Source: Escherichia coli
GTDB taxonomy: Bacteria; Pseudomonadota; Gammaproteobacteria; Enterobacterales; Enterobacteriaceae
DNA: 64,000 nt
Assembly (NCBI RefSeq): GCF_030013595.1
Contig: NZ_CP122768.1
Strand: one strand, 5' to 3'
Part shown: piece after piece, positions 6,001-12,000 of the stretch
Layout of the letters: every line of letters begins with the position of its first letter
Position numbering within the stretch: the stretch's first letter is position 1
Position numbers: made by a program

Positions 6001-9000
6001 GAATATGCATTATAAAATATCAGTTAACATTAACAGGATTTTGTAATAAGCCACATTTATTCTTTCGGGAATTAAAAAACATAACGAAATTTTGCCTCAT
6101 TCTGCATTTCATTGAAATAGTATGTTTCTCATCGAAAGCAAGTTTGTCAATATAAATTTGTAACAGAAATGACTTTCCGGGGATAAACAAAACTGTTCAT
6201 GGCAATGGCTTTCTCTGTCGCCAACATGGATACATTGTTCCGGATAAAGCACTGATGTCATTGACTGACGCAGACTATCAGGCCATCTGATGCTTTCTTT
6301 TCCTTCACCGGTATTGATGATATGCCTTATGAAGGGGGACTTATTCCTGTAACCCAATCACAGGCACTGTGATTACTGGTTTATGATTGATGCTGATTTG
6401 AGCAGATATGCACAGCAGTTGTGGATTCAGGGGATATTTTCTGCCAGATATTCATACCAGATTGATGACCTCTTTGCTCAGATGCTCTTCGTTCTGAGCC
6501 AGCCAGGATTTTGTGGCCACATACATTGTTCGCCGATGGGGAATCGAGACAGGCGATTGGCTGTGATGCGATTTTGCCGCTAACTGAGGATGAGTCCGCC
6601 CCTCCCGGGGAATTCCTGTAAGTTAAGCCGTACCTGTTGATTAGCACTAAACTGGGTAATGAATTTATCTGCCAGTATGAATGATGCCGGGGACGGTTTT
6701 GAACTCCTGATGTCGGGTAATATGCAGGATTTTAATATTTGTTGTCGTCGGGATAATCATTATCCTGAACATAAACTGATACCTTTATCAGAGTTATTTG
6801 ACGTTAATTATGGACTGAATCTTGAGCTGAATAAACTGGAGAAAGATTCTTCAGGAATTAATTTTGTTTCAAGAACGTCCAAAAATAATGGCGTCTCCGC
6901 CAGGGTTAAATTAAAAGATGGTATTAGTCCATGCCAGCAGCTGTGTTAACTGTAGCAGCAGGAGGTTCTGTTATGGAATCGTTTGTACAGGATTCACCAT
7001 TTTATAGTGGAAGAGATCTTTATTGGTTACGTCCTAAAGTTGAACTGACTCTGGAAGAGAAATTGTACTACTGCTCTTGTATAAGAAGAAACAGACACAA
7101 ATACAGCTACGGGCGTCAGGCAAACCGAACGCTGAAGAATTTACTGGTACCGTCATTAGATTCTGTTCCGGCATGGGTATATGGTGTGACAGGGAAAATA
7201 ATATCTGAATTGTCTGAACGTTGAGACTAAGAGGGCCGGAGGCCAGGTGAATGGCCACCGGGATATTTATATCAGAGTATATTGGCGATTGATTTTGCCA
7301 GCTGGTCTTCCAGATGAGGTTTAGCTTCTTCAAACTTCAGATTAACCTGGTTGGCACTGGATACAACCCGGGTCTGGTATTTATGCTGGTTGCCGGTTTC
7401 TGTGCTTGTCTGAATTTTGGAGCCTGATGTTCCCTGACGCAAAGCTGCAACATTATCCGTTCTGACGCTGGTTCTGGTTCGCTCGGCAATCTGAACATCT
7501 GTAATCATTGTGTAATTTATATCTTCCACCATTGCATCCGCGGCCATGCCAATCAGACCGGTAGCCAGTCCAACACCGAGAGTGGTACCTGCCGACCCGG
7601 TATTGTACGCTGTGATTCCACCTCCAAGAGCAGCTCCGACTGCTGCACCTTCATAACCGCGACTCAGCCATCCCTGAGATTCACGCAGATCCATTTTGTC
7701 TGCTTTGAGAACGTTAGCCTGGATCCAGTAGTAAGCTTTATCCGGGGAAGTCATGATCTGATAACCTCTGGCTTTGACTGCATCGGCAATTTTTCCCTGT
7801 AGTCCACTCATGTCTTTATCCGACGTGTTTTTGATCTGCAGGAAAACGGTGCGTTCGCTCGCAGGTTCAAGCCAGATGGTTGAGGTGTACTGACAATAGC
7901 GGACACTACCATTTGTTCTTTTTTTAAGCAGCCATCTGATGATATTTTTCCCTGAAGGCTGCCGGGGATATATTCCCCAGACGAGAGTGACGACGCTGAC
8001 GATTGTAGAAAATCTCAATGTATTCCCGTATTACTGAGATGGCCTCATCCCGGCTCTTAAAACGATAGTGGCTCAGGCTCTCATTTTTCAGCGTTCCCCA
8101 GAAGCTTTCCATCGGAGCGTTGTCGTAACAGTTACCTTTACGCGACATTGATGTTTTCAGACCAAACTGCTCCTGTATGACCCGGTAATCGTATGCGCAG
8201 TACTGTGAACCTCGATCAGAGTGGTGGATTAGCCCGGCAGGTGGGCGCTGGCTCCTGAGCGCCATAAACAGGGCTTTACCTGTCAGCTCTTTTGTCATGC
8301 GCTCTCCCATGGCGTAGCCGACAATTTCGCACGTATAAACATCTTTGATGCCAGCGAGGTACAACCATCCCTCCTGTGTGGCAACATACGTCAGGTCCGC
8401 CACCCAGACCTGATTTGGTGCTGTAGGAGCGAACGTCTGGTTCAGCAGATTTGGCGCAACTGGCAGATTGTGGTTCGAGTTCGTAGTCGCCCTGAACTTG
8501 CGTTTCTGCTTACAGCGTAGCCTTAGCTCCTTACGAAGACGTGCCAGTCGGTCACGACCAACGATGATGCCATTCTCTGCCAGCTCCGTCTGGAGCCGCC
8601 GGGTTCCATATGTTTCGCGAGTGCGGATATGTGCCACCTTAATCTCCAGTTTTAGCCGCTCATCACTTTGTTTTCTGTCTGAGGGTTCATGCTGTACCCA
8701 GTTGTAATAACCGCTCCTGGATACACCAAATACCTGACACATCGCTTCAATGGGAAATTGTTGTCGCCATTGTTCGATTAACGCGTATTTTTCAGCGACT
8801 CCTGTGCAAAATACGCTGTTGTAGATTCAATTGGTCAACGCAACAGTTATGTGAAAACATGGGGTTGCGGAGGTTTTTTGAATGAGACGAACATTTACAG
8901 CAGAGGAAAAAGCCTCTGTTTTTGAACTATGGAAGAACGGAACAGGCTTCAGTGAAATAGCGAATATCCTGGGTTCAAAACCCGGAACGATCTTCACTAT

Positions 9001-12000
9001 GTTAAGGGATACTGGCGGCATAAAACCCCATGAGCGTAAGCGGGCTGTAGCTCACCTGACACTGTCTGAGCGCGAGGAGATACGAGCTGGTTTGTCAGCC
9101 AAAATGAGCATTCGTGCGATAGCTACTGCGCTGAATCGCAGTCCTTCGACGATCTCACGTGAAGTTCAGCGTAATCGTAAGCGTACAGCCTGAACCGTCT
9201 GGTCAGAATCTGACGAATTAGACAAAGTGGTGTCCAACAAATAAGTAGTGGGAACCAAAGTATCAGATATGCAGAAAAATGTGACTCCCGGCAGGCGAAA
9301 AGGCTGCCCTAATTATCCTCCCGAATTTAAACAGCAGCTCGTTGCTGCCTCCTGTGAACCCGGGATATCCATCTCAAAACTTGCTCTTGAAAATGGCATT
9401 AACGCCAATCTGTTGTTCAAATGGCGACAACAATGGCGCGAGGGAAAGCTGCTATTACCTTCTTCAGAGAGCCCCCAGCTACTTCCTGTGACTCTCGATG
9501 CAGCTGCCGAACAGCCAGAATCGCTCGCAGAGGACCCGGAAACCCTCAGTATCAGCTGTGAGGTAACGTTCCGGCACGGGACGCTCCGCTTCAATGGCAA
9601 TGTCAGCGAAAAGCTCCTGACTCTGCTGATACAGGAACTGAAGCGATGATCCCGTTACCTTCCGGGACCAAAATTTGGCTGGTTGCCGGTATCACCGATA
9701 TGAGAAATGGCTTCAACGGCCTGGCTGCGAAAGTACAAACGGCGCTGAAAGACGATCCCATGTCCGGCCATGTTTTCATTTTCCGGGGCCGCAGCGGCAG
9801 TCAGGTTAAACTGCTGTGGTCCACCGGTGACGGACTGTGCCTCCTGACCAAACGGCTGGAGCGTGGGCGCTTCGCCTGGCCGTCAGCCCGTGATGGCAAA
9901 GTGTTCCTTACGCAGGCGCAGCTGGCGATGCTGCTGGAAGGTATCGACTGGCGACAGCCTAAGCGGCTGCTGACCTCCCTGACCATGCTGTAAATCTCTT
10001 TATCCTGGTTGTCACAGAATAAGCCCGGTAAAATACGGGCTTATGAACGACATCTCTTCTGACGACATCTTCCTGCTGAAACAGCGCCTGGCCGAACAGG
10101 AAGCGCTGATCCACGCCCTGCAGGAAAAGCTGAGCAACCGGGAGCGCGAAATAGACCATCTGCAGGCGCAGCTGGATAAACTCCGCCGGATGAACTTCGG
10201 CAGTCGTTCCGAAAAAGTCTCCCGCCGTATCGCACAAATGGAAGCCGATCTGAACCGGCTTCAGAAAGAGAGCGATACGCTGACTGGTAGGGTGTATGAC
10301 CCGGCAGTACAGCGTCCGTTGCGTCAGACCCGCACCCGTAAGCCGTTCCCTGAATCACTACCCCGTGACGAAAAGCGACTGTTGCCTGCGGCGCCGTGCT
10401 GCCCGAACTGCGGCGGTTCACTGAGCTATCTGGGCGAGGATACCGCCGAACAGCTGGAGTTGATGCGTAGCGCCTTCCGGGTTATCCGGACGGTACGGGA
10501 AAAACATGCCTGTACTCAGTGCGATGCCATCGTGCAGGCACCTGCACCTTCGCGGCCCATCGAGCGGGGTATCGCCGGACCGGGGCTGCTGGCCCGCGTG
10601 CTGACCTCGAAGTATGCAGAGCACACCCCGCTGTATCGCCAGTCAGAAATATACGGCCGGCAAGGTGTGGAGCTGAGGCGTTCACTGCTGTCGGGCTGGG
10701 TGGATGCATGCTGCCGGCTGCTGTCTCCGCTGGAAGAGGCGCTTCATGGCTATGTCATGACTGACGGCAAACTCCATGCCGATGATACCCCGGTCCAGGT
10801 ACTGCTGCCGGGTAATAAGAAGACGAAGACCGGGCGGTTGTGGGCGTATGTTCGTGATGACCGCAATGCAGGGTCAGCGTTGGCACCTGCAGTGTGGTTC
10901 GCTTACAGCCCGGACAGAAAAGGCATCCATCCGCAGACTCATCTTGCCTGCTTCAGCGGTGTGCTGCAAGCGGATGCGTACGCCGGGTTCAACGAGCTGT
11001 ATCGCAATGGTGGGATAACGGAAGCTGCCTGCTGGGCTCATGCCCGCCGAAAGATCCACGATGTGCACGTCCGCATCCCGTCAGCACTGACGGAAGAAGC
11101 CCTGGAGCAGATCGGTCAGTTGTACGCCATAGAGGCGGATATAAGGGGAATGCCGGCAGAGCAGCGGCTTGCTGAACGTCAGCGAAAAACGAAACCGTTG
11201 TTGAAATCCCTGGAAAGCTGGTTGCGTGAAAAGATGAAGACCCTGTCGCGACACTCAGAGTTGGCGAAGGCGTTCGCGTACGCACTTAACCAGTGGCCGG
11301 CACTGACGTACTATGCGAACGATGGCTGGGTGGAAATCGACAACAACATCGCTGAAAATGCCCTGCGGGCGGTCAGTCTGGGTCGTAAAAACTTCCTGTT
11401 CTTCGGCTCTGATCATGGTGGTGAGCGGGGAGCGCTACTGTACAGCCTGATCGGGACGTGCAAACTGAATGACGTGGATCCAGAAAGCTACCTTCGCCAT
11501 GTGCTTGGCGTCATAGCAGACTGGCCGGTCAACCGGGTCAGCGAACTGCTTCCGTGGCGCATAGCACTGCCAGCTGAATAACACATCCCCGTCAATACGG
11601 CCCTCGCTGTACGCTTACGCGTAATCGGGGCAGACGCTATTACAAAGCTGTTGATGCTAATAACCGAGCCAACAGAATGGCGAAAAGGCCAAAACCGTGC
11701 TTACTGGATCAAAATTTACCATTGCGAAAGCTTGTTCTGGAAAAGCTGGAGATGAAATGGTCTCCAGAGCAAATATCAGGATGGTTAAGGCGAACAAAAC
11801 CACGTCAAAAAACGCTGCGAATATCACCTGAGACAATTTATAAAACGCTGTACTTTCGTAGCCTGATTACCACTATAAAAAGGCTGCTATTGAGTATGTT
11901 GCTCAGATGCTCATATCAAATATCGGTAATCTTGAGGAATACACATTTGTTCCCGTACCACCATCCAAATGCCGTACAGATGCCGCTTACGATGACCGTA

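Follow-up and report, generated by a model that had tools for sequence, protein, structure and literature searches.

In which order did the insertion sequences (IS) stacked beside the iee gene of a Shiga-toxin Escherichia coli island accumulate, and what did the island lose in the process? The question is raised by a 64,000-nucleotide stretch of an E. coli genome (RefSeq assembly GCF_030013595.1, contig NZ_CP122768.1; hereafter the window), which contains an island of the SpLE1 type. Here a 2,442-bp IS66-family element, ISEc8, lies within a truncated IS30, the IS30 lies within a truncated IS600-family element, and the right edge of IS30 is fused to the remnant of a phosphoribosyltransferase (PRTase) gene of the ShosT type. 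The locus is likely to be a stack of IS scars at the boundary between the cargo and the backbone of the island, in which IS30 was truncated before ISEc8 arrived, and the cut beside iee destroyed a ShosTA-type toxin-antitoxin defence module.

Anatomy of the nest

The innermost element, ISEc8, interrupts IS30 after nucleotide (nt) 357 of the latter. It is bounded by GTAAGCGTACAGC in inverted orientation, with 13 nt matching exactly at either end (9177-9189 on the plus strand and 11606-11618 on the minus strand, with 0.08 matches expected by chance); the terminal arms, which begin with GTAAGCG, can be followed over 23 nt, of which 83% are complementary. On both sides stands GCGTAATC, an exact target-site duplication of 8 bp whose sequence occurs only once in genomes in which the same site is empty. 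The three genes tnpA, tnpB, and tnpC follow one another in one orientation with all three open reading frames (ORFs) open, as in the IS66 family, and their products score above the respective NCBIfam cut-offs (97.7 bits against 74 for IS66 TnpA, 120 against 50 for TnpB, and 459 against 180 for the IS66 transposase). The name ISEc8 is taken from WP_000998048.1, a protein to which the transposase is identical and which RefSeq lists as "IS66-like element ISEc8 family transposase." The first-pass annotation had described a 2,442-bp IS66-family element in the IS30 transposase gene with these inverted repeats and this duplication, all of which were reproduced base for base. ISEc8 entered IS30 by ordinary simple transposition, as the earlier reading of an IS-in-IS nest had it; the inverted repeats, the target-site duplication, and the matching pair of filled and empty sites all support this. 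Scanning for promoters and terminators across the nest gave no more sites than were obtained in shuffled sequences.

The host of ISEc8 is the left part of an IS30. The inverted repeat that forms the IS30 left end, TGTAGATTCAATTGGTCAACGC, occurs once in the 64-kb window, at 8820, and the reading frame that opens at ATG 8882 reads through ...REVQRNR to 9176 before it runs into foreign sequence (KRTA*); it resumes at 11627, about 2.45 kb further on, in agreement with the earlier description. The resulting ORF (8882-9193) encodes 103 amino acids (aa), comprising the N-terminal helix-turn-helix (HTH) region of the IS30 transposase and four codons contributed by the ISEc8 end; RefSeq lists it as an HTH-domain protein that is incomplete. 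After removal of ISEc8 and one copy of the duplication, the joined segments 8820-9176 and 11627-11863 correspond to IS30 nt 1-594 with 0 mismatches to K-12 IS30A, and the first mismatch falls at nt 595. No trace of the remaining 627 bp (nt 595-1221), which carry the catalytic domain and the right inverted repeat (IRR), was found anywhere in the window. Comparison with the IS30 reference, which the first-pass annotation had proposed, therefore bears out its statement that IS30 ends without a right inverted repeat, and extends it to the DDE catalytic part, so that no complete mobile IS30 is present; the end coordinate given at the time, 11862, is correct within the 2-nt ambiguity of the joint.

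That IS30 is itself inserted in a truncated IS600 (junction 8819|8820) had not been reported in the first-pass annotation. The IS600 orfB scores 336 bits against the NCBIfam model transpos_IS3, and other IS600 copies align from window positions 7877-7881 onward. The left ~320 bp of the element (the left inverted repeat, IRL, and most of orfA), as seen in strain PSJ-16, gave 0 matches when used as probes against the window; only orfB and the right end are retained from the orfA and orfB with frameshift site and both ends that make up a complete IS3-family element. In strain PSJ-16 the left junction between IS600 and IS30 agrees with that of the window in every base, and a complete IS30 is accompanied there by both halves of IS600 and a 2-bp GT duplication; plasmids, too, have IS600 with a complete IS30 at this left junction and the GT duplication.

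As a separate observation, several IS3-family elements, among them IS911A of K-12, the IS600 copies of the window and of PSJ-16, and the plasmid copies, have IS30 at the homologous dinucleotide immediately 3' of the A-rich frameshift motif; both orientations occur, and 2 bp are duplicated. This recurrent position suggests either a hot spot for IS30 or a travelling IS600::IS30 composite. On the other side of the IS600 fragment, the native 5' end of traT, with the signal peptide and lipobox region, is missing where the gene meets the right end of IS600 (7877-7881). Its annotated start codon falls within IS600 sequence, and the gene is recorded as a pseudogene in some RefSeq entries. No pre-deletion arrangement of traT with IS600::IS30 was found in the plasmid search, in which the traT joint was present in only three plasmid records; these appear to be mis-binned chromosomal island DNA (e.g., a 212-kb "EDL933 plasmid").

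ISEc8, which its sequence presents as complete and presumably mobile, is the only component of the nest still able to move. IS30, IS600, and shosT are dead, and the neighboring iee is intact. The coordinates of the components are collected in Table 1.

Table 1. Components of the nest and of its surroundings in the window.
Feature	Position	Strand	Description
traT	7272-7973	-	native 5' end lost
IS600-family (IS3 family) fragment	7881-8819	-	right ~940 bp, including complete orfB (7924-8742); RefSeq: partial IS3-like IS600-family transposase
IS30 nt 1-357	8820-9176	+	IRL 8820-8845; transposase codons 1-98 (HTH region) from ATG 8882; 100% identity to K-12 IS30A
HTH-region ORF	8882-9193	+	103 aa
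Target-site duplication, copy 1	9169-9176		GCGTAATC; IS30 nt 350-357
ISEc8 (IS66 family), complete	9177-11618	+	2,442 bp; identified by inverted repeats, three open ORFs, NCBIfam scores, and RefSeq name
ISEc8 IRL	9177-9198		
ISEc8 tnpA	9269-9649	+	alternative GTG start at 9248
ISEc8 tnpB	9646-9993	+	
ISEc8 tnpC	10043-11581	+	
ISEc8 IRR	11597-11618		
Target-site duplication, copy 2	11619-11626		GCGTAATC
IS30 nt 358-594	11627-11863	+	homology to IS30 ends at nt 594
Non-homologous joint, IS30 nt 594/shosT nt 175	11862-11863		CC common to both parents; located by aligning the intact genes of M6 and EC5654 and K-12 IS30
ShosT-type PRTase gene remnant	11862-12314	+	codons 59-208 of 208 (3' 150 codons)
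Nonsense codon in shosT remnant	12174-12176		TGG>TAG
iee (IS-excision enhancer)	12338-14698	-	786 aa; archaeo-eukaryotic primase (AEP) primase-polymerase and superfamily 2 (SF2) helicase; intact; convergent with shosT remnant
RtT RNA match	23144-23278	+	beyond the island integrase
CRISPR repeats (type I-F-like)	~23326-23349 and 23381-23408		CTGCCTGTACGGCAGTGAAC; one ~32-nt spacer between; Rfam CRISPR-DR4, 50 bits

Order of the truncation and the ISEc8 insertion

The first-pass annotation had placed the loss of the IS30 right half after the insertion of ISEc8. Two queries bearing on this order were run against 5,426 complete E. coli genomes, over which all counts given here were taken. The first query combined the empty ISEc8 target site with the truncation joint and returned full-length single-piece matches in seven genomes, six of which are clean: pig enterotoxigenic E. 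coli (ETEC) strains ETEC1746, 1747, 4090, and 6335, the second island of O157 strain 7.1_Anguil, and OkiPb01713. The annotated regions of ETEC1746, 7.1_Anguil, and OkiPb01713 were inspected, and ETEC1747, 4090, and 6335 are included on the basis of single-piece matches at 100% identity. All six have IS600/IS30 and IS30(594)/shosT joints identical to those of the window and a single copy of GCGTAATC at the unoccupied target. The uninterrupted arrangement, which had been proposed as the means of reconstructing the order of events, thus exists in related genomes, and in each of them IS30 is already truncated at nt 594. The second query joined the ISEc8 right end to full-length IS30 and gave no single-piece match; the two-piece matches that it returned span 1.4-1.8 kb for a 970-bp query and represent other arrangements.

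Apart from ISEc8 and one copy of GCGTAATC, ETEC1746 and the window are separated by a single mismatch in each flank (6.2 kb on the left, 6.5 kb on the right), which corresponds to 99.98% identity over 12.6 kb of flanks. In the islands of 7.1_Anguil and OkiPb01713 that have the empty site, ISEc8 is found instead at two other nearby positions between dgkA and small hypothetical genes, in opposite orientations (locus coordinates 1276-3588 and 2547-4859), which indicates independent and repeated ISEc8 strikes on islands that already had the IS30/shosT joint. The seventh match, O157:H7 SS52, was excluded as an empty-site allele, as its region, at 97.5% identity, holds both an ISEc8-interrupted and a second, uninterrupted IS30 fragment, with a stray terminase fragment between the two (locus coordinates 915-4407); the arrangement is probably an assembly artefact.

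Since empty-site alleles exist and a full-length IS30::ISEc8 intermediate does not appear among the genomes, truncation first is the more parsimonious order, and IS30 was probably truncated before ISEc8 inserted, which reverses the order first proposed. Single nucleotide polymorphisms (SNPs) were also compared among the window, TW14359, 14EC001, and ETEC1746, with M6 as the outgroup. Only three sites are parsimony-informative, and they divide the filled alleles; one of them could be polarised, and there the ancestral state is found in both the empty allele and the window.

The lost ShosTA-type module and the origin of the joint

Intact homologs of the truncated PRTase gene were found in strains M6, EC5654, LSU61, CEC13091, and O111:NM 14614, in which shosT is 627 bp long (208 aa), has an overlapping 894-bp dprA-like gene (shosA) upstream, and is convergent with iee. 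The intact M6 proteins match the PADLOC profiles for ShosT (E = 2e-50) and ShosA (E = 4e-103), and the intact 208-aa protein gave no match in a Pfam scan, in NCBIfam, or in a sequence search of the PDB; its identity as ShosT is drawn solely from the PADLOC profile and the phosphoribosyl pyrophosphate (PRPP)-binding motif. Neither an intact shosT nor an adjacent DprA-like shosA is present in the window, which lacks shosA altogether and retains shosT only from codon 59 onward, and the earlier remark that the PRTase gene lacks its 5' end is confirmed by the intact M6 and EC5654 copies. The remnant has in addition a nonsense codon (TGG>TAG), unreported in the first-pass annotation, directly before the PRPP-binding motif IVIFDDVLTAGS.

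In the characterised ShosTA system, which is a type IV toxin-antitoxin system and also acts against phages, the toxin is a PRTase and the antitoxin is DprA-like, and neutralisation of ShosT toxicity by ShosA is known for the two-domain ShosT (PMC11961720). By extension, the short 208-aa ShosT may be toxic as well, in which case the cell would have survived loss of the antitoxin gene shosA because the event that removed it also disabled shosT. In O104:H4 HUSEC2011, a partial ISEc22 (IS66 family) truncates shosT independently at another point (locus coordinates 3926-5218). Both independent truncations, of the O157 type and of the O104 type, end inside shosT, which fits co-inactivation of the toxin with loss of the antitoxin. 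The triple junction ISEc8/IS30/shosT is present in 469 genomes, the intact dprA-like gene with the shosT 5' region in 40, and a shosT remnant matched in its 3' part only, as in HUSEC2011, in about 177, among which HUSEC2011 alone was inspected.

The helicase gene that had been thought to be reshaped by the nest is iee, which lies 24 bp past the shosT remnant. It is intact, and its product, the IS-excision enhancer (IEE), is identical to that of O157:H7 TW14359 (WP_000233452.1), with D142, D144, H178, D216, and K451 all present at the positions described (PMC9943667; Chandler et al. preprint); what was destroyed at this locus was the ShosTA-type module. RefSeq names the protein [quoted passage not shown] and a literature search on "TOTE conflict system," the RefSeq name for IEE-like proteins, gave nothing relevant. 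The published activities of IEE (PMC9943667, PMC9397093) are the promotion, in a transposase-dependent manner, of excision of elements of the IS3, IS1, and IS30 families, the promotion of deletions in the DNA that flanks them, and microhomology-mediated end joining; its gene is carried by SpLE1-like islands, as it is on the SpLE1-like integrative element of the window.

The history most consistent with these data would begin with an IS600-family element at the 5' end of traT, into which IS30 would have inserted at the site that it uses in other IS3-family copies, with the GT duplication that intact relatives retain. Non-homologous joining would then have fused IS30 nt 594 to shosT nt 175 across the 2-nt CC microhomology, with loss of the right 627 bp of IS30, the left end of IS600, all DNA in between, the antitoxin-like shosA, and codons 1-58 of shosT. 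An active ISEc8 would subsequently have transposed into the IS30 stump and duplicated GCGTAATC, shosT would later have gained its nonsense codon, and the island would have spread to many Shiga-toxigenic E. coli (STEC) and ETEC lineages. Several points weigh against this history. The order of truncation and insertion is an argument from parsimony, precise excision of ISEc8 would also yield empty-site alleles, and the SNPs are too sparse to position the empty allele. No genome was found to have the complete arrangement expected before the deletion (traT, IS600::IS30, intervening DNA, shosA, and shosT), so that the joining may be read as a single in situ deletion only by reconstruction. Similarly, the short ShosT differs from the crystallised two-domain ShosT, and its toxicity is accordingly presumed.

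Precise excision is central to the opposite order, in which ISEc8 inserted into a complete IS30, the deletion into the PRTase gene came later, and ISEc8-free alleles arose by excision between the 8-bp repeats, possibly with the help of IEE. The filled allele is ~80 times commoner than the empty one (469 genomes against 6), every carrier encodes IEE, a promoter of precise IS excision, and the empty ETEC1746 allele is nearer to the filled allele of the window than the O157 filled allele is. This order is nevertheless unlikely, for it requires one extra rare event and an intermediate that was seen in none of the genomes, the state shared by the empty allele and the window at the polarisable SNP is ancestral rather than derived, and IEE activity is documented for the IS3, IS1, and IS30 families with IS66 unmentioned in the IEE review. 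IEE could also have made the IS30/shosT joint itself, as the fossil of a failed copy-out of IS30, or of some other IS formerly at this position, in which the strand switched at a microhomology and the flank was deleted. The intact iee so close beyond the remnant, the known action of IEE on IS30- and IS3-family elements and on IS-flanking regions, its end-joining activity, the 2-nt microhomology, and the second shosT truncation by ISEc22 in O104:H4 are all compatible with such an origin. It is doubtful all the same, as the breakpoint lies 627 bp inside IS30 and not at an IS end, microhomology of at least 2 nt is expected at ~16% of random joints by our own calculation, and the sequence does not separate IEE from other illegitimate recombination.

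The two IEE proposals may be combined, such that the IS30/shosT joint and the O104:H4 ISEc22 truncation are both IEE-driven microhomology deletions and the ISEc8-free alleles are IEE-assisted precise excisions of an IS66-family element. This combination is decidedly improbable; if true, IEE-assisted excision of ISEc8 would extend the substrate range of IEE to IS66, a family as yet unreported among its substrates. The joint may alternatively involve no in situ deletion but illegitimate recombination between two molecules, namely a plasmid or island with traT and IS600::IS30 and a backbone with shosTA and iee, by which cargo was swapped. The backbone from int to iee and shosTA is tied elsewhere to different cargo (cdiBA, ter, and remnants of a type VI secretion system), and traT and IS600::IS30 are both common on plasmids. 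No donor carrying the complementary half was found, however, and in these data an exchange looks the same as a deletion; such an exchange is judged improbable. Deletion into shosT followed by insertion of ISEc8 into the IS30 stump is therefore retained as the likely course of events.

Island context and comparison with known systems

The gene order in the window is ure, eptA-like, dgkA, traT, partial IS600, partial IS30::ISEc8, shosT remnant, iee, gp2, yfjI, IS1 remnant, and int, and the nest lies where variable cargo (ure, eptA-like, dgkA, and traT) meets the conserved backbone (int through yfjI, gp2, and iee). This boundary has been rearranged repeatedly across strains: IS1203 is inserted in the nest in strain 155, the IS30 stump is shorter in EH2252, ISEc8 abuts iee in F3113, and traT and IS600 are deleted in OkiPb01713. 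The earlier characterisation of the nest as a recombination-active spot thus holds. ISEc8 is multicopy in STEC, and the nest query, part of which is IS30 sequence, matched at as many as 46 places in a single genome. Beyond the island integrase, a match to RtT RNA and two type I-F-like CRISPR repeats separated by one spacer were noted, and ARAGORN reported no transfer RNA genes in the window.

All components of the nest are already known, and it is annotated in RefSeq in hundreds of genomes; with the elements, the island, and iee all described, the locus has little importance in itself. Natural filled and empty alleles can nonetheless correct the order of events, most SpLE1-type islands have lost the ShosTA-type module that ~40 complete genomes keep beside iee, and the ISEc8 filled/empty pair offers both a marker for island typing and a natural pair for testing IEE on IS66-family elements.

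Among known systems, the nest is most readily compared with IS911A::IS30A in prophage CP4-6 of K-12. In both, an IS3-family host has IS30 inserted immediately 3' of the A-rich frameshift motif, and a 2-bp duplication is common to the K-12 case and to IS600::IS30. The IS30 of the window is oppositely oriented relative to its IS3-family host, however, and, unlike K-12 IS30A, it is interrupted by ISEc8 and lacks nt 595-1221. The inserted element shows no notable difference from ISEc8 of E. coli O157:H7, with the same tnpA, tnpB, and tnpC, the same inverted repeats beginning GTAAGCG, and an 8-bp duplication. With respect to ShosTA (Millman 2022 preprint; PMC11961720; PMC12961424), the short ShosT differs from the crystallised protein in that it lacks the N-terminal pyrophosphatase domain, and the likeness lies in the pairing of a DprA-like ShosA with a PRTase ShosT in the intact relatives of the window. 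The SpLE1 and SpLE1-like elements with iee (ECs1305) are matched without difference, in gene order to O157:H7 TW14359 and in an identical IEE, and the window is an instance of them.

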